Positions 3,047 to 55,948 are shown, counted from the first letter of the stretch. The stretch: DNA of 64,000 bases from Escherichia coli (GCF_003334255.1 NZ_QOWU01000001.1), one strand, 5' to 3'. Notes: generated by a model from the letters alone, not told the origin. Numbers and translations are program-made.

Positions 3047-3631
3047 ATGTCTAAAAAATTAGGTTTTGCCCTGTCTGGTCTTATGCTGGCGATGGTTGCA
3101 GGTACTGCTTCTGCTGATATGGACGGCGGTCAGTTAAATATCAGTGGTCTGGTTGTTGATAACACCTGTGAAACCCGCGTTGACGGCGGTAACAAGGATG
3201 GTCTGATCCTGCTGCAAACCGCAACCGTTGGTGAAATCGATGCTGGCGTACTGAATGACACCGTTGGCGCTAAAGCTAAACCTTTCAGCATCACCGTTGA
3301 CTGCAGCAAAGCAAATCCGAATCCAGGTAGCACGGCTAAAATGACCTTCGGTTCTGTTTTCTTTGGTAACAGCAAAGGGACTTTGAACAACGACATGTCT
3401 ATTAACAACCCATCTGACGGCGTTAATATCGCTCTACACAATATTGATGGTTCCACTATCAAACAGGTTCAAATTAACAACCCTGGCGATGTGTATACTA
3501 AAGCCCTGGATGCAACGACAAAATCTGCTGTTTATGATTTTAAAGCGTCTTACGTTCGTGCCGTCGCAGACCAAACAGCAACTGCTGGTTATGTAAAAAC
3601 TAACACTGCATACACCATTACTTATCAGTAA
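3047..3631 (+). CDS. yadN: fimbrial major subunit-like protein, chaperone-usher family
   Basis: 194 aa with N-terminal signal peptide ([23 protein letters not shown]) and fimbrial subunit-like C-terminus; first gene of the yad fimbrial operon. Confidence 0.85.
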
Positions 3632-3728
3632 GTATTCACCAGTTAAATTGATTGAATGAATATACAGGGAATAATAATTTCTATTTTATATTATTCCCTG
3701 TTTTAATTAACTCTATCAGGGATGGTTT

Positions 3729-4469
3729 ATGTTTTTTAACACCAAACATACAACAGCTTTATGCTTCGTAACCTGTATGGCTTTTAGTTCATCGTCTATT
3801 GCGGACATTGTCATTTCGGGTACTCGCGTAATATATAAAAGCGATCAAAAAAGTGTCAACGTACGTCTGGAAAATAAAGGGAATAACCCGTTGCTTGTCC
3901 AGAGTTGGTTAGATACTGGCGATGACAACGCTGAGCCTGGCAGTATTACAGTCCCTTTTACTGCTACGCCGCCAGTATCGCGTATTGATGCCAAACGTGG
4001 GCAAACAATCAAATTAATGTACACAGCCAGCACCTCACTGCCTAAAGACAGAGAGAGCGTGTTCTGGTTTAACGTACTGGAAGTTCCACCAAAACCAGAT
4101 GCAGAAAAGGTCGCGAATCAAAGCCTGCTGCAACTGGCATTTCGCACACGTATAAAACTTTTCTATCGCCCGGATGGATTGAAGGGAAATCCCTCTGAAG
4201 CCCCGTTAGCCCTGAAGTGGTTCTGGTCAGGTTCAGAAGGTAAGGCGTCATTACGAGTGACCAATCCAACCCCTTACTACGTCTCTTTTAGCAGTGGTGA
4301 TTTAGAAGCTAGCGGTAAACGCTATCCGATTGATGTGAAAATGATTGCACCATTTAGTGATGAGGTCATGAAAGTCAATGGCCTTAATGGCAAAGCGAAT
4401 TCTGCAAAAGTGCATTTTTACGCCATTAATGACTTTGGTGGCGCAATTGAAGGTAATGCCAGGCTGTAA
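3729..4469 (+). CDS. yadV: periplasmic fimbrial chaperone (PapD-like)
   Basis: 246 aa, signal peptide then PapD-family chaperone-like sequence; also known as ecpD in older K-12 annotation. Confidence 0.85.
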   Translation: MFFNTKHTTALCFVTCMAFSSSSIADIVISGTRVIYKSDQKSVNVRLENKGNNPLLVQSWLDTGDDNAEPGSITVPFTATPPVSRIDAKRGQTIKLMYTASTSLPKDRESVFWFNVLEVPPKPDAEKVANQSLLQLAFRTRIKLFYRPDGLKGNPSEAPLALKWFWSGSEGKASLRVTNPTPYYVSFSSGDLEASGKRYPIDVKMIAPFSDEVMKVNGLNGKANSAKVHFYAINDFGGAIEGNARL

Positions 4470-4503
4470 TCAGGCAAGGATATAATTCCGCAGGAAGCAT
4501 AGC

Positions 4504-7101
4504 GTGACTATAGAATATACTAAAAATTATCATCATCTGACCCGTATCGCCACGTTTTGCGCGCTGCTGTATTGCAATACTGCTTTCAGTGCTGAACTCG
4601 TTGAATATGACCATACCTTCCTGATGGGGCAGAATGCATCTAATATTGATCTCAGCCGGTACAGTGAAGGTAACCCCGCTATACCGGGTGTTTACGACGT
4701 CAGTGTTTATGTAAACGACCAACCAATCATTAACCAAAGTATTACATTTGTCGCAATTGAAGGAAAAAAGAACGCCCAGGCTTGTATCACATTAAAGAAT
4801 TTATTGCAGTTTCATATTAATTCTCCCGATATAAATAACGAAAAAGCCGTTCTGCTTGCCAGGGATGAAACGCTCGGCAATTGCCTCAATTTGACGGAAA
4901 TTATCCCTCAGGCTTCTGTTCGTTATGACGTTAACGATCAACGTCTGGATATAGACGTTCCTCAAGCCTGGGTAATGAAAAATTACCAAAACTATGTTGA
5001 TCCATCGTTATGGGAAAACGGCATTAATGCGGCCATGTTGTCATACAACCTCAACGGATATCATAGTGAAACCCCTGGTCGAAAAAATGAAAGCATTTAT
5101 GCTGCATTTAACGGTGGGATGAATTTAGGTGCATGGCGACTGCGTGCCTCGGGCAACTACAACTGGATGACCGATTCTGGCAGTAATTATGATTTTAAGA
5201 ATCGGTATGTTCAGCGTGATATCGCCTCGCTGCGTTCTCAACTCATTCTTGGTGAGTCTTATACGACGGGCGAAACCTTTGATTCCGTCAGTATCCGAGG
5301 CATTCGTTTATACAGTGACAGCCGCATGTTGCCTCCGACTTTAGCCAGCTTTGCGCCTATCATTCATGGCGTTGCCAATACCAACGCCAAAGTCACTATT
5401 ACGCAAGGTGGCTATAAGATTTATGAAACGACGGTGCCGCCAGGCGCTTTCGTCATTGATGATCTGAGTCCGTCAGGGTACGGCAGCGAGCTTATTGTTA
5501 CCATCGAAGAATCCGATGGCTCAAAGCGGACATTCTCGCAACCTTTCTCATCCGTTGTTCAAATGTTACGCCCTGGCGTTGGACGTTGGGATATTAGCGG
5601 CGGTCAGGTCTTAAAAGATGATATTCAGGATGAGCCTAATTTATTTCAAGCAAGCTACTACTACGGCCTGAATAACTATCTGACGGGTTATACCGGTATT
5701 CAGATAACCGATAATAACTATACCGCTGGTTTGTTAGGTCTTGGTCTGAATACTTCAGTTGGTGCATTTTCTTTCGATGTGACTCATTCCAATGTTCGTA
5801 TCCCGGATGATAAAACATACCAGGGGCAAAGTTATCGTGTTTCCTGGAACAAGTTATTCGAAGAAACAAGTACTTCACTGAATATCGCGGCCTATCGCTA
5901 TTCGACACAGAATTACCTTGGTCTTAATGATGCACTAACTCTAATTGATGAAGTGAAACATCCCGAACAAGATCTTGAACCGAAATCCATGCGTAATTAC
6001 TCACGCATGAAAAATCAGGTTACGGTCAGTATTAACCAACCGTTGAAATTTGAGAAAAAAGATTACGGTTCATTTTATCTTTCCGGAAGTTGGTCCGATT
6101 ACTGGGCTTCCGGACAAAATCGTAGCAATTACTCTATTGGCTACAGTAACAGTACATCCTGGGGCAGCTACAGTGTCAGTGCCCAGCGTTCATGGAATGA
6201 AGACGGCGACACTGACGATAGCGTTTATCTTAGTTTCACCATTCCAATTGAAAAATTACTTGGCACTGAACAACGTACTTCAGGTTTCCAGAGTATTGAT
6301 ACTCAAATAAGCAGTGACTTTAAGGGTAATAACCAACTCAACGTTAGCAGCAGTGGCTATAGCGATAACGCTCGCGTCAGTTATAGCGTGAATACTGGCT
6401 ATACGATGAATAAAGCCAGCAAAGATTTGAGTTATGTTGGGGGTTATGCCAGCTATGAGTCACCATTGGGAACGCTGGCAGGTTCAATTTCTGCAAATAG
6501 CGATAACAGCCGTCAAGTTTCTCTCAGCACCGACGGTGGTTTTGTATTGCATAGCGGTGGACTGACTTTCAGTAATGATAGTTTTAGCGACTCCGATACA
6601 CTGGCGGTAGTTCAGGCTCCAGGTGCTCAAGGAGCGCGAATAAATTATGGCAACAGTACTATCGATCGATGGGGTTATGGTGTCACCAGCGCTCTTTCTC
6701 CTTATCATGAAAACCGTATCGCGCTGGATATCAACGATCTTGAGAACGATGTTGAATTAAAAAGTACCAGTGCAGTAGCTGTACCGCGTCAGGGTTCAGT
6801 CGTCTTTGCTGATTTTGAAACCGTGCAAGGGCAATCAGCCATTATGAACATCACACGAAGTGATGGTAAAAATATTCCATTTGCTGCAGATATTTATGAT
6901 GAGCAAGGCAATGTCATTGGTAATGTTGGACAGGGTGGACAAGCATTTGTTCGTGGTATTGAGCAGCAGGGAAATATCAGCATTAAATGGCTCGAACAAA
7001 GTAAACCCGTAAGTTGTCTTGCGCATTATCAACAAAGCCCAGAAGCAGAAAAAATAGCACAATCTATTATTCTGAATGGAATTCGGTGTCAGATTCAGTA
7101 A
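4504..7101 (+). CDS. htrE: outer-membrane fimbrial usher protein
   Basis: 865 aa, GTG start, usher size and domain order, rich in beta-strand Y/G/S/N composition; sits between chaperone and minor subunit genes. Confidence 0.88.
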   Translation: MTIEYTKNYHHLTRIATFCALLYCNTAFSAELVEYDHTFLMGQNASNIDLSRYSEGNPAIPGVYDVSVYVNDQPIINQSITFVAIEGKKNAQACITLKNLLQFHINSPDINNEKAVLLARDETLGNCLNLTEIIPQASVRYDVNDQRLDIDVPQAWVMKNYQNYVDPSLWENGINAAMLSYNLNGYHSETPGRKNESIYAAFNGGMNLGAWRLRASGNYNWMTDSGSNYDFKNRYVQRDIASLRSQLILGESYTTGETFDSVSIRGIRLYSDSRMLPPTLASFAPIIHGVANTNAKVTITQGGYKIYETTVPPGAFVIDDLSPSGYGSELIVTIEESDGSKRTFSQPFSSVVQMLRPGVGRWDISGGQVLKDDIQDEPNLFQASYYYGLNNYLTGYTGIQITDNNYTAGLLGLGLNTSVGAFSFDVTHSNVRIPDDKTYQGQSYRVSWNKLFEETSTSLNIAAYRYSTQNYLGLNDALTLIDEVKHPEQDLEPKSMRNYSRMKNQVTVSINQPLKFEKKDYGSFYLSGSWSDYWASGQNRSNYSIGYSNSTSWGSYSVSAQRSWNEDGDTDDSVYLSFTIPIEKLLGTEQRTSGFQSIDTQISSDFKGNNQLNVSSSGYSDNARVSYSVNTGYTMNKASKDLSYVGGYASYESPLGTLAGSISANSDNSRQVSLSTDGGFVLHSGGLTFSNDSFSDSDTLAVVQAPGAQGARINYGNSTIDRWGYGVTSALSPYHENRIALDINDLENDVELKSTSAVAVPRQGSVVFADFETVQGQSAIMNITRSDGKNIPFAADIYDEQGNVIGNVGQGGQAFVRGIEQQGNISIKWLEQSKPVSCLAHYQQSPEAEKIAQSIILNGIRCQIQ

Positions 7102-7117
7102 CTACAAGGGACGTCAA

Positions 7118-7687
7118 ATGATAAAAACAACGCCACATAAAATAGTGATACTGATGGGAATATTATTATCACCCTCAGTATTTGCAACGGATATTAATGT
7201 AGAGTTTACAGCCACTGTCAAAGCGACAACCTGTAACATCACACTTACTGGTAATAACGTCACGAATGATGGCAATAATAACTACACATTGAGAATCCCT
7301 AAGATGGGTCTGGATAAGATCGCGAATAAAACGACAGAATCTCAGGCTGATTTTAAACTGGTTGCCAGTGGGTGCAGCAGTGGCATCAGTTGGATTGATA
7401 CCACTCTGACCGGAAATGCATCATCAAGCTCACCTAAGCTTATTATACCGCAGTCTGGTGATTCATCTTCGACGACAAGTAATATCGGTATGGGTTTCAA
7501 AAAACGGACTACTGATGATGCCACTTTCCTTAAACCTAACAGTGCGGAAAAGATACGCTGGAGCACAGACGAGATGCAGCCCGATAAGGGTCTTGAAATG
7601 ACCGTTGCGCTACGTGAAACAGATGCAGGGCAAGGCGTACCGGGGAATTTTCGTGCACTGGCGACGTTTAATTTCATCTATCAATAA
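7118..7687 (+). CDS. yadM: fimbrial subunit-like protein
   Basis: Track ORF begins at 7076, but the N-terminus MIKTTPHKIVILMGILLSPSVFA with RBS AAGGGA at 7106-7111 gives start 7118 (189 aa). Confidence 0.8.
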   Translation: MIKTTPHKIVILMGILLSPSVFATDINVEFTATVKATTCNITLTGNNVTNDGNNNYTLRIPKMGLDKIANKTTESQADFKLVASGCSSGISWIDTTLTGNASSSSPKLIIPQSGDSSSTTSNIGMGFKKRTTDDATFLKPNSAEKIRWSTDEMQPDKGLEMTVALRETDAGQGVPGNFRALATFNFIYQ

Positions 7688-7698
7688 GAAGGATAATT

Positions 7699-8304
7699 AT
7701 GATGACATTTAAAAATTTACGTTATGGATTATCCAGCAGTGTCGTTTTGGCTGCCTCATTGTTCAGCGTACTCTCTTATGCGGCAACAGACAGTATTGGA
7801 CTGACCGTTATTACTACTGTAGAAATGGGTACTTGTACCGCTACATTAGTAAATGACTCTGATCAGGACATTTCTGTTGTTGATTTTGGTGATGTATATA
7901 TTTCTGAAATCAATGCCAAGACCAAAGTAAAAACATTCAAACTCAAATTCAAAGACTGTGCGGGTATCCCCAATAAAAAAGCGCAAATAAAATTAACCAA
8001 GCGAGCCACATGCGAGGGAACTGCTAATGACGGTGCGGGGTTTGCAAATGGTTCCACAGCCGCAGATAAAGCAAGTGCTGTCGCCGTTGAAGTCTGGAGC
8101 ACTGTAACTCCGGCAACAGGGAGTGCAACACAATTTAGCTGTGTAACACCAGCATCACAAGAGGTAACAATCTCCACTGCAGCCAATGCGGTCGTTTATT
8201 ATCCGATGAGTGCACGCCTGGTCGTGGAAAAAAATAAAACCGTAAACAATGTCACTGCGGGTAAGTTTTCTGCACCAGCCACATTTACAGTAACCTATAA
8301 CTAA
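7699..8304 (+). CDS. yadL: fimbrial subunit-like protein
   Basis: 201 aa, signal peptide, fimbrial subunit-like; position in operon. Confidence 0.8.
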   Translation: MMTFKNLRYGLSSSVVLAASLFSVLSYAATDSIGLTVITTVEMGTCTATLVNDSDQDISVVDFGDVYISEINAKTKVKTFKLKFKDCAGIPNKKAQIKLTKRATCEGTANDGAGFANGSTAADKASAVAVEVWSTVTPATGSATQFSCVTPASQEVTISTAANAVVYYPMSARLVVEKNKTVNNVTAGKFSAPATFTVTYN

Positions 8305-8330
8305 CAGACTTACAGATTCAGGAACTATAT

Positions 8331-8927
8331 ATGCATCCCACTCAACGTAAGCTGATGAAGAGAATAATTCTGTTTCTGTCATTACTGTTTTGCATCGCCT
8401 GTCCAGCCATTGCTGGACAGGATATTGACCTTGTTGCCAATGTAAAAAACAGCACCTGCAAAAGCGGAATCAGTAACCAGGGTAATATTGATCTTGGCGT
8501 CGTTGGGGTGGGATATTTTTCAGGTAATGTTACTCCTGAAAGTTATCAACCAGGTGGAAAAGAGTTCACTATCACTGTATCCGACTGTGCATTACAGGGA
8601 ACTGGCGATGTGCTAAATCAGTTACATATTGATTTTAGAGCCCTTAGCGGTGTCATGGCTGCTGGCTCTAGGCAAATATTTGCTAATGAAATTTCGTCAG
8701 GAGCAAGTAATGTAGGAGTAGTTATATTTTCTACTCAGGATTCGGCGAATACATTCAATGTTCTTAATGCTTCAGGCGGATCTCGTTCCGTTTATCCAGT
8801 AATGTCGGATGACATGAATGGTTCATCCTGGAAATTTAGCACCCGAATGCAAAAAATCGATCCTGCATTGAGTGTTACATCTGGTCAACTTATGAGCCAT
8901 GTGTTAGTGGATATTTACTACGAATAA
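8331..8927 (+). CDS. yadK: fimbrial subunit-like protein
   Basis: 198 aa, signal peptide, fimbrial subunit-like. Confidence 0.8.
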   Translation: MHPTQRKLMKRIILFLSLLFCIACPAIAGQDIDLVANVKNSTCKSGISNQGNIDLGVVGVGYFSGNVTPESYQPGGKEFTITVSDCALQGTGDVLNQLHIDFRALSGVMAAGSRQIFANEISSGASNVGVVIFSTQDSANTFNVLNASGGSRSVYPVMSDDMNGSSWKFSTRMQKIDPALSVTSGQLMSHVLVDIYYE

Positions 8928-8976
8928 CAAACAAAAACAGCGCAAACCATAACAATAAAGAAACATTGGAGTAAAA

Positions 8977-10215
8977 ATGAAGACTATCTTCAGGTACATT
9001 CTTTTTTTAGCACTGTATTCTTGTTGTAATACAGTCAGTGCATATACAAGTTTTATTGTGGGAAATAATGCAGGAGTTGATAACTATCGAGGCCCCTCCA
9101 CTGCCGCACAGATGACCTTTAATTACACATCAACAGCAAGCAACTTGGTTTTTTATAAACCCACGCAGCTCGGCCCGACTGGGGTAAAAATGTACTGGTC
9201 ATACCTGGATACAGGTACCGGTGGTGGTATTCTTTACTGCAATACATCTGGCAGAGCGAATCCTGGTCCAATAACTATTGAAAATGCCATGGTCTATTCA
9301 GGTAAAGATTATGGCGGACATAAACTATTTAATACATCTGTTCCTGGTCTGTATTACACCATGTTAATATCAAGGGTCTGGTCTGCATACGATACAATAA
9401 CTGACATTCAATCGCCAGGAATCTATATCGGAGATCCTTCCAACCAAGAATTTTTCTTTTCCGTCACAGACAGCGATCTACAAACTAAGGGTTGCAACAA
9501 AGCAGACGACTACGATAAGTTTTGGGCTATTGGTGGTATAGTACACAACATAACTGTTGAATTTTATACAGATACTAATTTCGATCCTACACTTAATCAG
9601 CAAGTCCAGTTATCCAGTTCATCAAATTACCTTTATTCGTTTAAGGCCTACAGTCCTGGTACAAAAGTTGTAGATCACAGCAACCACATTTATGTCAATT
9701 TCACACTGAATAATGTCAAATTAACCTTACCAACATGTTTTACCTCCATACTTACCGGGCCATCAGTCAATGGTTCAACGGTTAGAATGGGAGAATATAG
9801 CTCTGGGACAATTAAAAATGGCGCTTCACCTGTTCCCTTTGATATCTCGCTTCAGAATTGTATTCGTGTGCGTAATATTGAAACAAAACTCGTCACTGGA
9901 AAAGTAGGTACTCAAAACACACAACTGCTTGGTAATACGCTTACTGGAAGCACTGCCGCCAAAGGCGTTGGCGTACTCATTGAAGGTTTAGCAACCAGTA
10001 AAAATCCGCTAATGACATTAAAACCTAATGATACGAATTCTGTTTATATAGATTATGAAACCGAAGATGACACCTCCGATGGGGTTTACCCTAATCAAGG
10101 TAACGGCACATCACAGCCTCTTCATTTCCAGGCAACATTAAAGCAAGACGGGAATATTGCTATCGAACCCGGCGAATTTAAAGCCACCAGTACTTTCCAG
10201 GTAACCTATCCCTGA
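8977..10215 (+). CDS. yadC: fimbrial tip adhesin-like protein
   Basis: 412 aa two-domain protein (putative N-terminal lectin domain plus C-terminal pilin domain) ending the operon; followed by a 12-bp-stem inverted repeat. Confidence 0.8.
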
Positions 10216-36913: not shown

Positions 36914-37073
36914 GGGTTATTCCTTATCTATCTAATAACGTTGAGTTTTCTGGAACCTGTCCCATTGAACTCTCGCCGGAAAGCTCAATAAGACAGGTTC
37001 TACGTTTAGTTGCCGCGCTTTTATATGCGCTTGATTTACAACATCTTCTGGATAATTTTTACCAGAAAAATCA

Positions 37074-41224: not shown

Positions 41225-42178
<954 letters not shown>

Positions 42179-42380
42179 TAGTTGACAGATTTATCCGCTC
42201 CATCGCGGGCGGATAATCTCCCCTTCCCCAACTTTCTTCGTAACGCCTCGCAAATTTCTTGTCTTTCGCTGCAACGAAATAAAAAACCTCGGAATCTGCT
42301 TTCCCGTTTCGTTTTTTGCCCCTCGCCTGTGCTGATGGCGTTTGCCAAAGTAGCGCCAACCAAATCAAGGAGCGAAACAG

Positions 42381-42821
42381 ATGGACAAGCAACGCGGTTT
42401 TACACTTATCGAACTGATGGTGGTTATTGGCATCATTGCCATTTTAAGCGCCATTGGTATTCCCGCTTATCAAAACTACCTGCGCAAAGCCGCACTCACC
42501 GACATGCTACAAACCTTTGTGCCTTACCGTACCGCCGTAGAGTTGTGCGCGCTGGAACATGGTGGATTAGATACCTGCGACGGTGGCAGCAATGGCATTC
42601 CCTCGCCTACCACCACCCGCTATGTTTCAGCCATGAGTGTGGCAAAGGGCGTGGTGTCGCTGACCGGGCAAGAAAGTCTCAATGGGCTAAGCGTCGTCAT
42701 GACACCGGGTTGGGATAACGCAAACGGCGTCACCGGCTGGACGCGCAACTGCAATATTCAAAGTGACAGCGCATTGCAGCAAGCCTGCGAAGATGTCTTC
42801 CGCTTTGATGACGCCAACTAA
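42381..42821 (+). CDS. ppdD: type IV prepilin (major pilin)
   Basis: 146 aa; class III leader MDKQRGFTLIELMVVIGIIAIL with prepilin peptidase cleavage site G/FTLIE. Confidence 0.92.
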   Translation: MDKQRGFTLIELMVVIGIIAILSAIGIPAYQNYLRKAALTDMLQTFVPYRTAVELCALEHGGLDTCDGGSNGIPSPTTTRYVSAMSVAKGVVSLTGQESLNGLSVVMTPGWDNANGVTGWTRNCNIQSDSALQQACEDVFRFDDAN

Positions 42822-42830
42822 GGAGCGGCA

Positions 42831-44216
42831 ATGAATATTCCACAGCTCACTGCCCTGTGTCTGCGTTATCATGGAGTCTTGCTGGATGCCAGCGAAGAGG
42901 TGGTTCATGTTGCGGTAGTCGATGCACCTTCGCATGAGCTACTGGACGCATTGCATTTCGCTACCACCAAACGTATTGAGATCACCTGCTGGACGCGCCA
43001 ACAAATGGAAGGTCACGCCAGTCGCACACAACAGACATTGCCCGTAGCTGTTCAGGAGAAGCATCAGCCCAAAGCAGAGTTGCTAACTCGAACGTTACAA
43101 TCTGCGCTGGAACAACGCGCGTCTGATATTCATATCGAACCAGCGGACAATGCCTACCGCATCCGCTTGCGTATCGACGGCGTATTGCATCCTTTACCGG
43201 ATGTTTCACCGGATGCCGGAGTCGCATTAACCGCCAGATTAAAAGTGCTGGGAAACCTGGATATTGCGGAACATCGCCTGCCGCAGGACGGGCAATTCAC
43301 TGTCGAACTGGCAGGAAACGCCGTCTCATTTCGTATTGCGACCTTACCATGTCGGGGTGGTGAAAAGGTGGTATTAAGGTTGTTACAGCAGGTGGGTCAG
43401 GCACTGGATGTCAACACGCTTGGAATGCAGCCGTTACAACTGGCGGACTTTGCTCATGCCTTGCAACAACCACAGGGACTGGTGCTGGTAACTGGCCCTA
43501 CCGGCAGCGGCAAAACGGTCACGCTTTATAGTGCCCTGCAAAAGCTGAATACCGCTGACATTAATATTTGTAGCGTCGAAGATCCAGTTGAGATCCCCAT
43601 AGCCGGACTAAACCAGACGCAAATCCATCCGCGTGCCGGACTCACCTTTCAGGGCGTTTTGCGTGCGTTATTGCGCCAGGATCCTGACGTCATCATGATC
43701 GGAGAGATCCGCGATGGCGAAACAGCAGAGATCGCTATTAAAGCGGCGCAAACTGGTCACCTGGTGTTGTCTACCCTACACACTAATTCCACCTGCGAAA
43801 CGCTGGTACGTTTACAGCAAATGGGGGTCGCCCGCTGGATGCTATCATCGGCGCTTACGCTGGTAATAGCCCAGCGTCTGGTACGCAAACTTTGCCCACA
43901 TTGTCGCCGGCAGCAAGGGGAGCCCATCCACATTCCAGACAATGTATGGCCATCGCCGCTGCCCCACTGGCAGGCACCCGGTTGTGTACATTGCTACCAC
44001 GGTTTTTATGGTCGTACGGCCTTATTTGAAGTTCTGCCCATAACGCCGGTCATTCGTCAGCTTATTTCCGCTAATACCGACGTTGAATCGCTGGAAACGC
44101 ACGCACGACAGGCGGGTATGCGTACGCTTTTTGAAAACGGCTGCCTGGCCGTAGAGCAAGGCTTAACCACCTTTGAAGAGTTAATCCGCGTACTGGGGAT
44201 GCCGCATGGCGAGTAA
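42831..44216 (+). CDS. hofB: type IV pilus assembly ATPase (GspE/PilB family)
   Basis: 461 aa; Walker A GPTGSGKT, Asp box and His box; C-terminal Cys tetrad CPHC...CVHC. Confidence 0.9.
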   Translation: MNIPQLTALCLRYHGVLLDASEEVVHVAVVDAPSHELLDALHFATTKRIEITCWTRQQMEGHASRTQQTLPVAVQEKHQPKAELLTRTLQSALEQRASDIHIEPADNAYRIRLRIDGVLHPLPDVSPDAGVALTARLKVLGNLDIAEHRLPQDGQFTVELAGNAVSFRIATLPCRGGEKVVLRLLQQVGQALDVNTLGMQPLQLADFAHALQQPQGLVLVTGPTGSGKTVTLYSALQKLNTADINICSVEDPVEIPIAGLNQTQIHPRAGLTFQGVLRALLRQDPDVIMIGEIRDGETAEIAIKAAQTGHLVLSTLHTNSTCETLVRLQQMGVARWMLSSALTLVIAQRLVRKLCPHCRRQQGEPIHIPDNVWPSPLPHWQAPGCVHCYHGFYGRTALFEVLPITPVIRQLISANTDVESLETHARQAGMRTLFENGCLAVEQGLTTFEELIRVLGMPHGE

Positions 44217-45408
44217 GCAACTCTGGCGCTGGCATGGCATAACCGGCGACGGCAATGCGCAAGATGGGATGCTATGGGCAGAGAGCCGTACTTTACTGCT
44301 TATGGCACTACAGCAACAGATGGTTACCCCACTAAGCCTGAAGCGAATCGCCATCAATTCTGCGCAGTGGCGAGGAGATAAAAGCGCGGAAGTCATTCAT
44401 CAACTGGCGACGCTACTCAAAGCAGGGTTAACGCTTTCTGAAGGGCTGGCTCTGCTGGCGGAACAGCATCCCAGTAAGCAATGGCAAGCGTTGCTGCAAT
44501 CGCTGGCGCACGATCTCGAACAGGGCATTGCTTTTTCCAATGCCTTATTACCCTGGTCAGAGGTATTTCCGCCGCTCTATCAGGCGATGATCCGCACGGG
44601 TGAACTGACCGGTAAGCTGGATGAATGCTGCTTTGAACTGGCGCGTCAGCAAAAAGCCCAGCGTCAGTTGACCGACAAAGTGAAATCAGCGTTACGTTAT
44701 CCCATCATCATTTTAGCGATGGCAATCATGGTGGTTGTGGCAATGCTGCATTTTGTTCTGCCGGAGTTTGCCGCTATCTATAAGACCTTCAACACCCCAC
44801 TACCGGCACTAACGCAGGGGATCATGACGCTGGCAGACTTTAGTGGCGAATGGAGCTGGCTGCTGGTGTTGTTCGGCTTTCTGCTGGCGATAGCCAATAA
44901 GTTGCTGATGCGCCGACCGACCTGGCTTATAGTGCGGCAGAAATTGCTGTTACGCATCCCGATTATGGGTTCACTGATGCGGGGACAAAAACTCACGCAG
45001 ATCTTTACGATTCTGGCGCTGACACAAAGTGCAGGCATTACTTTTTTACAGGGCGTAGAGAGCGTCAGAGAAACAATGCGCTGCCCGTACTGGGTGCAAC
45101 TTCTGACACAAATCCAGCACGATATCAGTAACGGTCAACCCATCTGGCTGGCGCTAAAAAATACCGGTGAGTTTAGCCCGCTCTGTTTGCAATTAGTGAG
45201 AACAGGAGAGGCATCCGGCTCTCTGGATCTCATGTTAGACAACCTCGCCCATCATCATCGGGAAAACACAATGGCGCTGGCGGATAACCTCGCAGCCTTA
45301 CTGGAACCGGCGTTGCTGATCATAACGGGAGGAATTATTGGTACGCTGGTGGTGGCAATGTATCTGCCAATTTTCCATTTAGGCGATGCGATGAGTGGGA
45401 TGGGATAA
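44206..45408 (+). CDS. hofC: type IV pilus inner-membrane platform protein (GspF/PilC family)
   Basis: 400 aa, duplicated GspF-type domain with three predicted transmembrane segments; overlaps the hofB end. Confidence 0.9.
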   Translation: MASKQLWRWHGITGDGNAQDGMLWAESRTLLLMALQQQMVTPLSLKRIAINSAQWRGDKSAEVIHQLATLLKAGLTLSEGLALLAEQHPSKQWQALLQSLAHDLEQGIAFSNALLPWSEVFPPLYQAMIRTGELTGKLDECCFELARQQKAQRQLTDKVKSALRYPIIILAMAIMVVVAMLHFVLPEFAAIYKTFNTPLPALTQGIMTLADFSGEWSWLLVLFGFLLAIANKLLMRRPTWLIVRQKLLLRIPIMGSLMRGQKLTQIFTILALTQSAGITFLQGVESVRETMRCPYWVQLLTQIQHDISNGQPIWLALKNTGEFSPLCLQLVRTGEASGSLDLMLDNLAHHHRENTMALADNLAALLEPALLIITGGIIGTLVVAMYLPIFHLGDAMSGMG

Positions 45409-45436
45409 CGCTGGCGTGTTGCTCCACGCCAGCGTT
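45407..45436. terminator. bidirectional stem-loop between convergent hofC and guaC
   Basis: 12-bp perfect stem aacgctggcgtg / cacgccagcgtt with 6-nt loop, overlapping the hofC stop codon. Confidence 0.6.
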
Positions 45437-45442
45437 GGGAGA

Positions 45443-46486
45443 TTACAGGTTGTTGAAGATGCGGTTTTCTTGTTCCTGCACACGAATAAACGTGGTGCGC
45501 TTGGTCAGCTCTTTCAGGCGTGAAGCCCCAACGTATGTACAAGCTGAACGCAGGCCGCCCAAAATATCTCGCGCGGTATTTTCAACCGGGCCTCGCAGCG
45601 GCAGCTTAACGGTTTTACCTTCTGCTGCGCGATATTCCGCAACGCCGCCAACGTGACGTTTCATCGCAGACTCGGAGCTCATGCCGTAGAACAGCATAAA
45701 TTTCTCGCCGTTCTCCTCAACGATGCGACCGCCGCTCTCTTCGTGGCCCGCCAGCATGCCGCCAAGCATGACGAAATCGGCACCGCCGCCAAAGGCTTTC
45801 GCCACATCGCCCGGCGTGGTGCAGCCACCATCGCTGACGATCATTCCGCCCAGACCGTGCGCAGCATCGGCACATTCGATTACCGCAGAAAGTTGCGGAT
45901 AACCGACGCCTGTTTTGACGCGAGTTGTACAAACAGAACCTGGGCCAATGCCAACTTTAACGATATCGGCACCTGAGAGGATAAGCTCCTCACACATTTC
46001 ACCAGTCACTACGTTACCAGCACAAATGGTTTTGGTCGGCCACGCTTCACGCGCTTTCGCAACGAACTGCACGAAGTGTTCGGAATAACCATTCGCCACG
46101 TCAATACAAACGAAGTTTAATGCCGGGTTCAGGTCGAGAATCTGTTTAGTTTTTTCGAAATCCGCATCAGACGTACCGGTAGAAACCATCACATGTTTCA
46201 GCACATCAGCGGAAGAATTGTTGATAAACGCTTGCCACTCTTCGACAGAATAGTGTTTATGCACAGCAGTCAAAATATCAAAAGAAGCCAGCGCAGAGGC
46301 CATAGAAAATGTGCCTACGGTGTCCATATTTGCGGCGATAATCGGCACGCCGGACCAGCTCTGACCTGAATGTTTGAAGGTGAATTGACGTTCCAGTTCA
46401 ACATCGGAACGGCTTTTAAGAGTGGAGCGTTTAGGGCGGATGAGAACGTCTTTAAAACCTAACTTCAGATCTTCTTCAATACGCAT
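45443..46486 (-). CDS. guaC: GMP reductase
   Basis: 347 aa, [35 protein letters not shown]...; IMPDH/GMPR fold with catalytic Cys loop. Confidence 0.95.
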
Positions 46487-46710
46487 GTGCGGATTCCTGG
46501 GGTTAATGGCTATAAGGGTAAGAGCGCAACTCCAGTGACGCTATCATACGCACTAATCAATGCGGCGCAAGACTGCGAAATTGTCTTTTTTTACGCTACA
46601 ATCCCATAAATTTACCTGGTAAATAGTGAGCGAACGTTTCATCAATTTCGCTTTCGTGCACTCATTTTTAACGTTTTGATAATCATGATGAATTCCCGGG
46701 AATATAAATT

Positions 46711-47331
46711 ATGAGGTATATAGTTGCCTTAACGGGAGGCATTGGCAGTGGCAAGAGTACCGTTGCCAATGCGTTTGCTGATCTCGGAATTAACGTCATT
46801 GATGCCGATATTATTGCGCGTCAGGTGGTTGAACCAGGTGCACCTGCGCTACATGCCATTGCTGATCACTTTGGCGCTAACATGATTGCTGCTGATGGAA
46901 CATTGCAGCGCCGGGCCTTGCGCGAGCGGATCTTCGCCAACCCGGAAGAGAAAAACTGGCTTAACGCCCTGCTGCATCCGCTGATTCAGCAAGAGACGCA
47001 ACACCAGATCCAGCAAGCTACTTCCCCCTATGTACTGTGGGTTGTGCCATTGCTGGTAGAAAACTCACTGTATAAAAAAGCGAATCGAGTGCTTGTGGTG
47101 GATGTCAGCCCAGAAACGCAACTTAAGCGCACCATGCAGCGCGATGATGTAACTCGCGAGCATGTCGAACAAATCCTTGCTGCTCAGGCAACGCGCGAAG
47201 CCCGCCTTGCCGTGGCAGATGACGTCATTGATAATAACGGCGCACCGGATGCTATCGCATCGGATGTTGCCCGCCTGCACGCACACTATTTGCAGCTTGC
47301 GTCGCAGTTTGTCTCACAGGAAAAACCGTAA
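46711..47331 (+). CDS. coaE: dephospho-CoA kinase
   Basis: 206 aa, P-loop GGIGSGKST. Confidence 0.93.
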
Positions 47332-48290: not shown

Positions 48291-48496
<206 letters not shown>

Positions 48497-48503
<7 letters not shown>

Positions 48504-48886: not shown

Positions 48887-48945
48887 TGTCTTAAACCTAT
48901 AAAAAAGGCGCAGAATCCTGCGCCTTTTACTTCAACAGTTAGCTT

Positions 48946-51651
48946 TTATTGCAGGCGGCCATGGCACTGCTTGTATTTTTTACCAGAACCGCACGGGCAA
49001 GGATCGTTACGTCCTACTTTGCGCTCTCCGGTTTGCGCCGCCAGTGCAGCTGCGGCTGCAGAGTCGTCATCCTGATGGCTAAGCTGCTGCATTTGCGCTA
49101 AACGCTCGGCTTCCATACGACGCTGTTGTTCCAGCTCCTCAACCTCTTCAGGCATACGTACCTGAACTTTGCTCAGCGTACTGATAACTTCATATTTCAA
49201 CGACTCCAGCATCGCTGCAAACATGGAGAACGATTCACGTTTGTATTCCTGCTTCGGATCTTTCTGTGCGTAGCCACGCAGGTGGATACCCTGACGCAGA
49301 TAGTCCATCGCTGCCAGGTGCTCTTTCCACAGGGAGTCAAGCGTTTGCAGCATGACGCCTTTCTCGAAGTGACGCATCATCTCAGCACCAACCACTTCTT
49401 CTTTACGCTGATACACTTCGATGGACTGCGCCAGAATGCGCTCACGCAGCGTCTCTTCATGCAGTTCTGGTTCTTTATCCAGCCACTCGGCAATTGGCAA
49501 ATCGAGGTCGAAATCGTTCTTCAGACGTTCCTGCAGCCCCGGAATATCCCACATTTCTTCCAGCGACTGTGGTGGAATGTAGGCATCAATGGTCGCTTTG
49601 AACACATCTTCACGAATGCTGTTAATGGTTTCGCTCACATCGCTGACATCCAACAGTTCGTTACGCTGGGAGTAAATGGCGCGACGCTGATCGTTAGCCA
49701 CGTCATCATATTCCAGCAGTTGCTTACGAATGTCGAAGTTACGGCTTTCAACTTTACGCTGGGCGTTGGCAATCGCTTTAGTCACCCACGGGTGTTCAAT
49801 GGCTTCGCCTGGCTTCATACCCAGTTTACGCATCATGCCGGATACTCGGTCGGAAGCAAAAATACGCATCAGCGCATCTTCCATCGACAGGTAGAAACGG
49901 GAAGAACCAGCATCCCCCTGACGACCAGAACGACCGCGCAACTGGTTATCGATACGACGGGATTCGTGACGCTCGGTACCGATGATATGCAGGCCACCTG
50001 CTTCCAGTACCGCATCGTGACGTACCTGCCAGTCGGCTTTAATTTTTTCAATTTGCTCTGCGGTCGGATTTTCCAGCGCGGCAACTTCTGCCTGCCAGCT
50101 ACCACCGAGCACAATATCTGTACCACGACCCGCCATATTGGTCGCGATAGTCACCGCAGCCGGATAACCTGCCTGAGCAACAATCGCCGCTTCGTTGGCG
50201 TGGAATTTGGCGTTCAGGACGTTGTGCTTAATACCGGCTTTGGTCAGTTCGTTTGACACCAGCTCCGATTTTTCGATGGAGATAGTACCCACCAGCACCG
50301 GCTGGCCTTTCGCAGTACGTTCTTTGATATCTTCAATGATCGCCTGAATTTTTTCCGCTTCAGTCATGTAGACCAGGTCCGGCAGATCTTTACGAATCAT
50401 TGGACGGTTGGTCGGAACAACGACGGTATCCAGCTTGTAGATTGAGCTAAATTCGAAAGCTTCGGTATCAGCAGTACCGGTCATCCCCGCCAGTTTTTCA
50501 TACAGACGGAAGTAGTTCTGGAAGGTGATCGAAGCCAGCGTTTGGTTTTCGTTCTGGATCTGCACACCTTCTTTCGCTTCCACAGCCTGGTGCAGACCAT
50601 CGGACCAGCGACGGCCCTGCATGGTACGACCGGTGTGTTCGTCAACGATGATAACTTCACCATCTTTAACGATGTAGTCGACGTCACGGGTAAACAGCGC
50701 ATGAGCGCGCAGCGCCGCCGTTACGTGGTGCATCAGCATGATGTTGGCCGGAGAGTACAGAGACTCCCCTTCATCCATGATGCCCTCTTTCACCAGCAGT
50801 TCTTCAATCAGCACCAGACCACGTTCGGTCAGGTTCACCTGGCGAGATTTTTCGTCCACCGAGAAGTGGCCTTCGCCCTGGAAGGTTTCGGAGTCTTCTT
50901 TTTCCTGACGGATCAGGTGCGGAATAATTTTATTCACGCGTTTATACATTTCCGAGCTGTCTTCTGCCGGGCCGGAAATGATCAGCGGTGTACGCGCTTC
51001 ATCGATCAGGATGGAGTCCACTTCGTCCACCAGCGCATAGTGCAGTTTACGCTGTACACGTTCTTCAGGGCTGAACGCCATGTTGTCGCGCAGGTAGTCA
51101 AAGCCGTATTCGTTGTTCGTACCGTAAGTGATGTCAGCTGCGTAAGCTTCGCGCTTTGCCGGTGCTGGCATGCCCGGCAGGTTGATACCGACAGTCAGGC
51201 CAAGGAATTCAAACAGCGGACGGTTGTTTTCGGCGTCACGTTGCGCCAGGTAGTCGTTGACGGTAACTACGTGCACGCCTTTACCGGTTAGTGCGTTCAG
51301 GTAAGCAGGCAGCGTTGCGGTCAGGGTTTTTCCTTCACCGGTACGCATTTCGGCGATGCAGCGTTCGTTAAGAACCATACCGCCGAGTAACTGAACGTCG
51401 AAGTGACGCATACCAAAGACGCGCTTACTTGCCTCACGTACCACGGCGAAAGCTTCCGGGATCAGATTTTCCAGCACTTCGCCTTTTTCCAGACGTGCAC
51501 GAAACTCTGCGGTTTTCCCTTTCAGTTCTTCGTCGGAGAGTTTTTCCATCTCCGGTTCCATGGCATTGATGATGTTGACCACTTTGCGCATCCGGCGCAG
51601 GGTGCGATCGTTACGACTACCGAAAACTTTAGTTAACAATTTGATTAGCAT
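48946..51651 (-). CDS. secA: preprotein translocase ATPase SecA
   Basis: 901 aa, [25 protein letters not shown]...; DEAD-like motor; C-terminal zinc-binding [14 protein letters not shown]. Confidence 0.97.
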
Positions 51652-53473: not shown

Positions 53474-54625
53474 TTAATCAGCTTGCTTACGCAGGAATGC
53501 TGGGATATCCAGATAATCCGGCTCTTTCGCAGTTTGCGGCGCATTGTCATTCACGACTTTAGCAACCGGCTTCTGCTCCTGGGTCAGCGGAGCCATCCCA
53601 TGCTGCTGGTAGCGATCCATCACTGGCTGCTGAACCTGCTTATTGGTCACCAGAGTGATTTCAGGACGTTTGTCCATGCCGATACCTGTCGCAACAACGG
53701 TTACGCGCAGCTCGTCATTCATATCCGGGTCAAGAGAAGTACCGATAACCACAGTCGCGTTGTCGGAAGCAAATGCACGGATGGTGTTACCTACCGTTTC
53801 GAACTCATCCAGACGCAGGTCGAAGCCCGCCGTGATGTTAACCAGCACGCCGCGCGCGCCAGACAGGTCGATATCTTCCAGCAGCGGAGAAGAGATAGCC
53901 ATTTCAGCAGCTTCTTCCGCACGGTCTTCACCGCTCGCCACGCCAGAACCCATCATTGCGTAGCCCATCTCAGACATTACGGTGCGTACGTCTGCAAAGT
54001 CCACGTTCATCAAACCCGGACGAGTAATCAGTTCAGCGATACCTTGCACAGCGCCTTTCAGTACATCGTTCGCTGCGCCAAACGCATCCAGCAGGGAGAT
54101 ACCGCGGCCCAGAACTTTCAGCAGTTTGTCGTTCGGGATAGTGATCAGAGAGTCCACATGCTTGGACAGTTCAGTGATCCCCTGCTCCGCGAATGCCATA
54201 CGCTTCTTGCCTTCAAAGTTGAAAGGCTTAGTGACGACAGCAACGGTCAGGATACCCAAATCTTTTGCCACTTCAGCGACGACTGGTGCTGCACCTGTAC
54301 CGGTACCACCACCCATACCCGCAGCAATAAAGACCATGTCTGCACCTTCCAGCGCCGCACGCAATGCATCGCGATCCTCATCAGCCGCATTGCGGCCAAC
54401 TTCTGGATTAGCGCCAGCGCCCAGTCCTTTGGTGATACCGCTACCGATTTGAATCGTCTGTCCAACCGCTGTTTTACGCAGCGCTTGTGCATCGGTATTT
54501 ACCGCGAAGAATTCAACACCTTCAATGCGCTCGCGCACCATGTGTTCAACAGCATTACCGCCGCCGCCGCCGACGCCGATGACTTTAATCACCGCGTCAT
54601 TGGTAAGTTCCATTGGTTCAAACAT
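53474..54625 (-). CDS. ftsZ: cell division GTPase FtsZ
   Basis: 383 aa, tubulin signature GGGTGTG. Confidence 0.97.
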
Positions 54626-54685
54626 AGTTTCTCTCCGATTTGTGCCTGTCGCCTGAGGCCGTAATCATCGTCGGCCTCATAAAAA

Positions 54686-55948
54686 TTAAAACTCTTTTCG
54701 CAGCCAACTATTGAGTCGCTTGATCCACGAGCCAACTGATGCTGTAACACGTTTTTCTACTTCAGCTTCACCGTTAAGATGTGACTCTTTCCCATAGTGA
54801 AGCAATCCCACCGCCGTCGAATAATACGGCTCCTGAGCATAATCCGTTAAACCGGTAATGTTCAGCGGCGCGCCGATACGCACTTGCGTATGAAACACGC
54901 GCTGAGCACAGGCTGCAAGACCTTCGATCTGCGCTGCGCCACCGGTTAATACAATGCCTGCCGCCAGGTGATGTTTAACCCCTTGTTGGCGAAGCTTTTC
55001 CTGCAACTGCAATATCTCTTCGTTGACCAGGTTGAGCAGCTCGGTATAGCGCGGCTCGATCACCTCTGCCAGTGTCTGACGTTGCAGACTCCGTGGCGGA
55101 CGACCACCTACGCTCGGCACTTCCACGCTCTCATCTTTTCCAACGATGGAACCCAGCGCACAACCGTGGCGAACTTTAATCGCTTCGGCGTCGCTTGGCG
55201 GCGTGCCAAAGGCGTAAGCGATATCACTGGTCACGACATTGCCAGCATAAGGAATTACCTTAGTGTGGCGCAATGCCCCACCGGTATAAACGGCGATATC
55301 CATTGTACCACCACCGATATCGACGACGCAGACACCCAGTTCACGTTCATCTTCCGTCAATACCGAATAACTTGATGCCAGTCCGGCAAATATCAGTTGG
55401 TCAACTTTCAGCCCACAACGTTCAACCGCTTTGACGATGTTTTTCGCCATATCGTTGTGACATGTGATCAGGTGCACTTTTGCCTGCATCCGCACGCCCG
55501 AAAGTCCTACCGGATTCTTGATCCCTTCCTGATAGTCAATCGCATACTCTTGCGGGATCACATGCAGCACACGATGCTCATCGCGCACACGCACCGATTT
55601 CGCGGTATGGACGACGTTTTCCACATCTTCTTGCGTCACTTCTTCTTCAGAAATAGGCACCATACCAATTTCATTCTGGCAGCTGATGTGCTTACCAGAA
55701 AGCGCCAGATATACCGAAGAGATCTGACAATCTGCCATCAATTCTGCCTGGTCAATGGCGCGTTGTACGCACTTGACCACGGATTCGAGGTCGTTCACCC
55801 CGCCTTTATCCATACCACGCGACGGGCAGCTGCCCACGCCAATGATATTGACCATACCGTCGGGCAGAACTTCCCCTACTAAAGCGGCAACCTTCGCGGT
55901 ACCAATCTCCAGTCCTACTACCAGTTTTCTGTCCGTCGCCTTGATCAT
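54686..55948 (-). CDS. ftsA: cell division protein FtsA (actin-like ATPase)
   Basis: 420 aa, [20 protein letters not shown].... Confidence 0.96.

Follow-up and report, generated by a model that had tools for sequence, protein, structure and literature searches.

The ppdD-hofB-hofC operon of Escherichia coli raises the question of what a pilin, an assembly ATPase, and an inner-membrane platform that lie silent in laboratory cultures of K-12 are for, and what brings them into use. We examined it in a 64,000-nucleotide stretch of an E. coli genome (GCF_003334255.1 NZ_QOWU01000001.1; hereafter the window, with positions counted from its first letter), in which the operon spans 42381-45408. The evidence set out below leads us to read the operon, with a probability of roughly 93%, as the core module of the type IVa pilus and DNA-uptake machine of enterobacteria and as a member of the Sxy-dependent CRP-S regulon. 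The system itself is already known, the locus being the E. coli ppdD-hofB-hofC operon that is called hcpABC in enterohemorrhagic E. coli (EHEC). This identity follows from an annotated K-12-like E. coli chromosome, of which the window is the reverse complement of 95,929-159,928 with 7 mismatches in 64,000 bases, none of them within the locus; that record names the three genes (ppdD, 'gspE' for hofB, and hofC) and their flanks (ampE-ampD-nadC on one side, guaC-yacM-coaE-zapD-yacG on the other). An open reading frame (ORF) scan placed three plus-strand ORFs of 146, 461, and 400 amino acids in the operon, at exactly the coordinates given in an earlier note made from the sequence alone. That note's assignment of a pilin, an assembly ATPase, and a platform protein agrees with the ORFs, the family models, and the motifs alike, and its placement of the operon between nadC and guaC is borne out by the ORF scan and the matching chromosome.

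PpdD scores 269 bits against its NCBIfam equivalog NF007862 (cut-off 138) and 35.9 bits against TIGR02532 (cut-off 16.3), and it matches the Pfam domains N_methyl (E 4.7e-10) and Pilin (E 5.6e-4). Its N terminus, MDKQRG/FTLIELMVVIGIIAILSAIG, has a 6-residue leader and the cleavage motif G/FTLIE, and thus bears the class III signal peptide of a type IVa major pilin, in which a short basic leader ends in Gly and Phe+1, Glu+5, and a hydrophobic N-terminal helix come next. Cysteines occur at mature positions 50, 60, 118, and 130; Cys118 and Cys130 are those of the C-terminal disulfide loop that accompanies the pilin domain, Cys50 and Cys60 are the extra enterobacterial pair, and together they match the two disulfides published for the enterobacterial pilin subclass. 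The mature protein agrees with the chain of PDB entry 6gv9, the EHEC type IV pilus, at 139/140 residues. That the K-12-type PpdD allele present here assembles into filaments has been published.

The other two proteins are equally characteristic of their families. HofB reaches 823 bits against NF007755 (cut-off 617), with a Pfam T2SSE domain (E 1.3e-146) and an incomplete match to MshEN (24-86 of the 90 positions in the model), and it contains every hallmark motif of the PilB/GspE secretion ATPase family: the Walker A motif GPTGSGKT at residue 222, the Asp box VEDPVE at 249, the Walker B motif VIMIGEIR at 287, the His box GHLVLSTLH at 309, and a CxxC pair (CPHC at 355 and CVHC at 385). HofC scores 661 bits against NF007861 (cut-off 401) and has the two T2SSF domains (64-186 and 269-388) and three hydrophobic, transmembrane regions (~159-192, 212-236, and 361-395) of a PilC/GspF platform protein.

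The regulation of the operon was largely worked out by Cameron and Redfield (2006), who predicted one CRP-S site in the ppdD promoter, showed that purified CRP band-shifts a ppdD promoter fragment, and found that induced Sxy raises ppdD mRNA 90-fold; the induction was abolished without CRP or cyclic AMP (cAMP) and repressed by glucose. In the same study ppdD was co-induced with hofMNOPQ and other competence homologues, and Haemophilus influenzae sxy was able to induce E. coli ppdD. The CRP/Sxy-type site that the earlier note had suggested seeking upstream was thus identified and tested, by band shift and by Sxy induction, in 2006. The silence that the note described for K-12 in the laboratory is also on record, as no ppdD transcript or pilin was found without artificial sxy expression in K-12 or in 72 ECOR strains.

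The published site can tentatively be placed in the window. The primers of the band-shift fragment map to 42167-42297, and within this stretch just one 22-mer, that listed in Table 1, strongly resembles a CRP-S site; matches this good number only three in the 64 kb, the other two lying inside ftsA and mraY. Its cores read TTCGT-N6-TCGCA, with the C6 and G17 that mark a CRP-S site (core TGCGA-N6-TCGCA). The site is invariant among 8 E. coli lineages and is kept as T(G/T)CGA-N6-TCGCA in 95 Enterobacteriaceae species, many of which have the full TGCGA. The 22-mer is probably the published site, judged from its position and match. A consensus scan of 4.9 kb (41900-46800) returned no sigma-70-like promoter on either strand, against a shuffled expectation of 4.4 +/- 2.1. 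The earlier note had described both the inducing signal and the role as incompletely resolved; this remains fair for the natural signal and the physiological role and does not hold for the regulators, which are now mostly published, so that in the control of the operon only the natural signal for sxy remains unsettled in the literature.

The locus is a core module and not a complete pilus system. The annotation of the 64-kb window contains no gene for a peptidase, a secretin, an alignment complex, a minor pilin, or any other type IV pilus part, which agrees with the earlier statement that neither a prepilin peptidase nor a secretin is encoded nearby; of a complete type IVa pilus machine, the window lacks the peptidase, PilMNOP, the secretin, the minor pilins, and the retraction ATPase. 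In the matching K-12-like genome, hofM-hofN-hofO-hofP-hofQ lie at ~3.48 Mb and the prepilin peptidase gene gspO at ~3.43 Mb, at the end of a complete gsp cluster, both ~3.4 Mb from the pilus module. A processed 15-kDa PpdD has been reported in K-12 after sxy induction, and some peptidase therefore acts on PpdD. Besides gspO, the genome presumably offers pppA, which we take to be a further prepilin peptidase able to cleave PpdD.

From these parts a working scheme can be proposed. PpdD would be made as a prepilin with its 6-residue leader and cleaved after Gly-6 by a peptidase encoded elsewhere (gspO). Hexameric HofB, docked on the polytopic HofC, would then pull the mature pilin from the inner membrane and polymerise it, and the filament would pass the envelope via HofMNOP-HofQ, likewise encoded elsewhere. 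The three genes may be translated as one unit with translational coupling, as suggested by the 9-nt gap between ppdD and hofB, in which the hofB Shine-Dalgarno sequence AAGGAG straddles the ppdD stop codon, and by the 11-nt overlap of hofB and hofC (ATGGCGAGTAA). The promoter, having no usable sigma-70 consensus, would stay silent unless Sxy (TfoX) helps cAMP-CRP at the low-affinity CRP-S site, and a hairpin between hofC and guaC may mark the 3' end of both convergent transcripts.

Several points weigh against this reading. The need for the system in DNA uptake has been shown for hofQ and not specifically for ppdD or hofBC, and the published uptake is very weak. Pili were not seen on wild-type K-12 or uropathogenic E. 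coli (UPEC) under the conditions tested. HofB scores 485.8 bits against the PilB equivalog TIGR02538, below its cut-off of 675.65, with only model positions 160-561 aligned, and 457.6 bits against the GspE equivalog, also under the cut-off, with model positions 101-485 aligned; the N-terminal 100-160 residues of the PilB and GspE models are absent. No measured ppdD transcription start was found in the literature (the MG1655 Cappable-seq data found are for the plus strand, and ppdD lies on the minus strand), and the hofC/guaC hairpin is followed by no U-tract on either strand in any species examined, E. coli included. As the HofB score is under the TIGR02538 cut-off and the N-terminal domains are unaligned, we file HofB under its own equivalog NF007755 and not as PilB sensu stricto. 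We note that most of the classical PilB/MshE N-terminal regulatory region is absent from HofB.

The same scores enter into the proposal that ppdD, hofB, and hofC work in type II secretion, exporting proteins rather than building a pilus. The PGAP/RefSeq name of HofB is 'type II secretion system protein GspE', the GspE, GspF, and GspG models all give significant matches, and papers report assembly of PpdD by the type II secretion machinery. The GspG/GspE/GspF core of type II systems (E. coli gsp, Klebsiella Pul) is indeed a homologous set of pilin-like subunit, ATPase, and platform, and the E. coli gsp cluster encodes GspO, a peptidase able to serve both pilus and type II systems. Yet this genome also has a complete and distinct gspC-O cluster, which encodes a GspE, a GspF, and a GspG of its own, at a separate locus and under separate regulation; HofB scores higher against PilB than against GspE, under the cut-off of both, and the ppdD-hofB-hofC proteins score under the cut-offs of the GspE, GspF, and GspG equivalogs. 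PpdD is a true type IVa pilin by its features and belongs to a solved pilus, and the operon is co-regulated with competence genes through CRP-S. We consider a role in type II secretion very improbable.

A further question is whether the pilus and DNA-uptake module serves mainly for uptake or mainly for attachment. With Sxy expression and lambda Red, E. coli shows low but reproducible transformation that is abolished in a hofQ mutant. EHEC, for its part, makes PpdD pili (hemorrhagic coli pilus, HCP) in cultures on minimal casein medium, and these mediate adherence, invasion, and haemagglutination; the EHEC ppdD-hofBC cluster expressed in K-12 brings pilin to the surface; and a UPEC hofQ mutant colonises the kidney poorly. 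The primary role might then be surface adhesion and virulence, as hemorrhagic coli pilus, rather than DNA uptake, with the CRP-S/Sxy control seen in K-12 not the physiological switch, and that DNA uptake after sxy induction is barely detectable speaks in the same direction. This suggestion must contend with the conservation of the CRP-S site, and of the control region as a whole, in commensal and environmental Enterobacteriaceae, and with the co-induction of the operon with hofMNOPQ and other competence homologues; the two roles are, moreover, not mutually exclusive. We regard adhesion as the primary role as rather unlikely but worth serious attention.

The conservation of the module speaks for its use in nature. 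We searched 5,426 complete E. coli genomes with a 3.27-kb query covering the locus and found it in 5,425, with at least 80% of the query in one place at 95-100% identity in 5,424; seven lineages spread across that identity range carry full-length, unflagged coding sequences. Over eight sequences (the seven divergent lineages and the window), the mean ratio of nonsynonymous to synonymous substitution rates (dN/dS) is 0.099 for ppdD, 0.082 for hofB, and 0.132 for hofC, with dS at 0.05-0.09. Across the family, a DNA-pattern scan for the PpdD motif GIPAYQNYL yielded 108 loci, nearly all from Enterobacteriaceae, and the gene order ampD-nadC-ppdD-hofB-hofC-guaC(-)-coaE-zapD-yacG is constant in ~100 species. 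Counting only genes wholly inside their contig, 93/95 copies of ppdD, 70/73 of hofB, and 55/58 of hofC are full-length, and some of the remaining cases resemble low-quality assemblies. Identity to E. coli ranges over 64-92% for PpdD, 40-78% for HofB, and 44-73% for HofC, and over 76-98% for NadC and 89-96% for GuaC at the same loci; the pilus proteins thus diverge far faster than their housekeeping neighbours, yet their reading frames are kept.

These data effectively refute the view that the module is an evolutionary relic, cryptic and functionless and drifting towards pseudogenes, a view that could draw on the laboratory silence of the operon, the lack of a sigma-70-like promoter, the fast divergence of the proteins (HofC against GuaC, for instance), and occasional disruptions such as an IS903B insertion in strain 74-2 or a few truncated ORFs in other species. 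Such drift is at odds with a locus that is near-universal in E. coli, with purifying dN/dS values of 0.08-0.13 and all frames open in divergent lineages, with intact and syntenic genes in at least 94% of cases across ~100 species, with the retention of promoter blocks and their spacing, and with genes that can be induced to yield processed pilin. Pseudogenisation in most strains, which the earlier note had named as a ground for abandoning its claim, is not what we see, the genes being intact across lineages and species. In E. coli, and in the Enterobacteriaceae generally, the module belongs to the core genome under selection and is not a decaying relic, as its near-universality, synteny, intactness, and low dN/dS all show. 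In strain 74-2 (L002), IS903B sits between nadC and ppdD at the equivalent of ~42180-42420, and ppdD is annotated 36 nt shorter; this strain is a natural disruption of the ppdD promoter and 5' end.

On the way in which Sxy helps CRP, the alignment of 95 ppdD upstream regions from Enterobacteriaceae species (alignment A1, whose positions are used for single columns) offers a lead. It consists of conserved blocks alternating with spacers that vary in sequence and are constant in length (Table 1). From the CRP-S start to the end of CAnAGT (42234-42351), the region measures 118 bp within 1 bp in 84/95 species, and from the CRP-S centre to the T of TGnCAnAGT it measures 105.5-107.5 bp in 84/95; for the adjacent stretch, between nadC and CRP-S, the interquartile range of the length is 34-55 bp. 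Between the two ends lie a CTGCAAC block, an A-run, a palindrome centred five helical turns (53 bp) away from the middle of CRP-S, with columns G15, A16, A17, and C26 at least 90% conserved, a T-run, and CTCGCC, with T46 and G48 invariant. Fifteen variable nucleotides (42328-42342) separate CTCGCC from TGnCAnAGT, in which A70 and T74 are invariant and G67, C69, A72, and G73 at least 90% conserved, and the distance from TGnCAnAGT to the ATG is mostly 25-30 nt. A length-invariant control region with conserved blocks to which no function has been assigned may be new.

We propose that TGnCAnAGT serves as an extended -10 element, whose two invariant positions would be the critical A at -11 and T at -7, and that the T-run and CTCGCC form a tract for the C-terminal domain of the RNA polymerase alpha subunit (alpha-CTD), or UP-like tract, and a weak -35 element; the hexamer TCGCCT (42323-42328) lies 17 bp before CAAAGT (42346-42351). 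The generic promoter scan did not call this element, as its hexamer matches the consensus at only 3/6 positions. An extended -10 at this place would put the transcription start near 42358, and the predicted distances in Table 1 are counted from there; no promoter mapping of hcpA was found in the literature. A CRP-S site this far upstream would not be unprecedented, since positions near -62, -73, and -100 have been noted for the CRP-S sites of H. influenzae (Cameron and Redfield 2006).

The GGAA-N6-TTCC palindrome shows neither covariation nor a stable hairpin across the 95 species, and because of this it appears to be an element of DNA rather than RNA; in our reading it fits a CRP site poorly. 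With CRP-S predicted at -113.5 and the palindrome at -60.5, a second DNA-bound factor would be implied, one that bridges CRP to RNA polymerase and for which Sxy/TfoX itself, another CRP dimer, or a protein resembling CytR would be candidates. More speculatively, and with more doubt than confidence on our part, the control region as a whole may be a rigid nucleoprotein architecture of ~120 bp, a multi-protein promoter with binding sites so far unrecognised. If true, the bridging factor would explain why CRP alone cannot activate the promoter.

Other interpretations of the conserved blocks fared less well. In E. coli, 42306-42318 can pair with 42366-42378 and hide the Shine-Dalgarno sequence (minimum free energy [MFE] -29.9 kcal/mol, z -3.1), as in a leader RNA switch, and we rejected this as a conserved feature: RNAalifold predicts no pairs across the 95 species, and the bases of the stem pair in 64.2% of cells, compared with 63.5% for shuffled alignments, with 81/500 shuffles reaching the observed value. 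The A-run, palindrome, and T-run taken together as a bidirectional terminator or attenuator insulating ppdD from nadC were rejected for want of covariation; the mean MFE is -5.4 against -4.5 in shuffles, and a hairpin followed by a T-run occurs in 15/95 species on the plus strand and 24/95 on the minus strand. A sigma-54 promoter at TGCAAC or GGAA..TTCC is unfit by its GG/GC dinucleotides and spacing, as inspection of the alignment showed. We note a second hairpin at 42187-42219, just after the nadC stop (-16 kcal/mol, z -3.35, no T-run), which is kept within E. coli and not across the family.

CTGCAAC resembles one CytR half-site, and CytR operators are described in the literature as TGCAA/TTGCA-type repeats on one helix face, usually between CRP sites. 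The ppdD region has one TGCAAC (42270-42275), with a second pentamer nearby in only 13/95 species; we did not accept a CytR operator, which is at best a weak lead, and no paper linking CytR to ppdD was found. The TGCAAC lies about midway between CRP-S and the second palindrome, like the operators of CytR 'sandwich' promoters, but with one half-site and a GGAA-N6-TTCC that is a poor CRP site, the likeness is one of resemblance only. The region upstream of hofM in the same genome (positions 29143-29460 of stretch L120) reads AATGCAAC-AGA-CTGCAAG-GATCAAAAAA and contains a GGAAATTTCC palindrome; its AATGCAAC is a perfect CytR-type octamer, and the CTGCAAG and A-run that follow resemble the ppdD blocks. 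An element common to the ppdD and hofM promoters is nonetheless uninterpretable, since the hofM blocks fall within the coding sequence of the divergent mrcA or at its start.

At the other end of the operon, the earlier note had described a 12-bp-stem hairpin common to hofC and guaC, and the stem is indeed perfect. It lies in the 34-nt gap between the two stop codons; its left arm starts within the stop codon of hofC, and its right arm ends 6 nt short of the guaC stop. Its folding energy is -25.2 kcal/mol on the plus strand (z -4.1) and -23.9 on the minus strand (z -5.6), and 0/200 shuffles are as stable. The stem is conserved within E. coli, where one lineage carries a G-to-A change that retains a G-U pair. 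Among 51 species with a foldable hofC-guaC gap, 40 form a stem of at least 8 bp in the same place from differing sequences, and the gap has z < -2 in 41 (median z -2.75); the stem-loop is maintained as a structure despite sequence turnover, the pattern expected of a selected structure. It has the GC-rich stem-loop of an intrinsic terminator without the U-tract, the tails reading GGGAGATTAC on the plus strand and ATCCCATCCC on the minus strand, and a terminator scan did not list it, there being no T-run. For lack of a U-tract we do not count it among the canonical bidirectional intrinsic terminators; it is likely a non-canonical 3'-end element common to hofC and guaC.

Comparison with known systems places the operon among its relatives. 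Its closest counterpart is the orthologous hcpABC of EHEC O157:H7; in a genome of this type the DNA of the locus is 97.7% identical and none of the genes is broken, and since K-12 shows no pilus under known culture conditions, the difference between the two is one of expression and not of gene content. The H. influenzae pilABCD operon has the same order of pilin, ATPase, and platform and a CRP-S site needing Sxy and cAMP-CRP; the E. coli operon differs in having no pilD, guaC on the opposite strand following hofC directly in every enterobacterial locus that spans this junction, and E. coli transformation is almost undetectable. In Pseudomonas aeruginosa, pilA/pilBCD encode the same protein families as PpdD, HofB, and HofC, whereas HofB aligns with the PilB equivalog only in part and the E. 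coli control is by CRP-S/Sxy; P. aeruginosa pilA is controlled by PilS-PilR/sigma-54. We take the P. aeruginosa neighbourhood to be ampD-nadC-pilA-pilBCD-coaE-yacG; the E. coli locus would then represent the ancestral pil arrangement minus pilD, with guaC perhaps standing where an ancestral pilD stood.

Table 1. Features of the ppdD-hofB-hofC locus and its control region in the window; the last column counts from the predicted transcription start at 42358.
Feature	Coordinates	Strand	Description	Predicted position
nadC	41285-42178	+	Upstream neighbour of ppdD	
CRP-S site	42234-42255	+	22-mer TTCTTCGTAACGCCTCGCAAAT; best CRP-S match in the nadC-ppdD intergenic region, 12/16	Centre -113.5
CRP-S half-sites	within 42234-42255	+	Mean column identity 0.78 and 0.84	
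CTGCAAC block	42269-42275	+	Mean column identity 0.82, flanks ~0.4; resembles one CytR half-site	
A-run	42281-42286	+	Mean column identity 0.71	
Palindrome GGAA-N6-TTCC	42291-42304	+	Mean column identity of arms 0.87 and 0.85, of 6-nt spacer 0.55	Centre -60.5
T-run + G	42311-42318	+	Mean column identity 0.71	-47 to -40
CTCGCC	42322-42327	+	Mean column identity 0.87; T46 and G48 of A1 invariant	
TGnCAnAGT	42343-42351	+	Mean column identity 0.84; A70 and T74 of A1 invariant	
ppdD Shine-Dalgarno AAGGAG	42367-42372	+	8 nt before ATG; identity of CAAGGAG (42366-42372) 0.92	
ppdD	42381-42821	+	Type IVa major prepilin, 146 aa; 6-aa leader, mature 140 aa	
hofB	42831-44216	+	PilB/GspE-family assembly ATPase, 461 aa	
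hofC	44206-45408	+	PilC/GspF-family inner-membrane platform, 400 aa	
GC-rich hairpin	45407-45436	both	Arms 45407-45418 and 45425-45436; 12 bp, 100% complementary, 6-nt loop	
guaC	45443-46486	-	Downstream neighbour, convergent with hofC	

Elsewhere in the window, a Yad chaperone-usher fimbrial operon (yadN, yadV, htrE, yadM, yadL, yadK, yadC), an adhesin system belonging to another pilus class, occupies 3047-10215. Some 19 kb away from the pilus module, the gene yacC (23013-23360) bears the annotation 'YacC family pilotin-like protein', pilotins being the escorts of secretins. No Rfam match was found in or beside the ppdD-hofB-hofC locus. Farther off, PssrA ('plasmid-encoded Shigella sRNA A') matches at full length with 105 bits at 54617-54706 (minus strand), where the 3' end of ftsA meets the start of ftsZ, which is an odd position for a family whose description calls it plasmid-encoded. 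A tandem pair of REP-like naRNA4 matches lies in the yacG/mutT gap (48304-48497, minus strand), an STnc40 match in the mutT/secA gap (48901-48970, minus strand), and a tp2 match just upstream of pdhR (36916-37029, plus strand).

As a gene set the operon adds nothing new: it is a textbook cryptic module whose regulators are known, whose filament is solved, and for which published work includes a functional reconstitution in the form of the EHEC system. What the present analysis contributes is that its conservation, now quantified, argues for use of the module in nature, that the hofC/guaC hairpin keeps its structure as the sequence changes, and that its promoter appears to be fixed in length. 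The blocks of the control region are a testable lead on how Sxy helps CRP and on Sxy-dependent promoters, with concrete positions to mutate and footprint.

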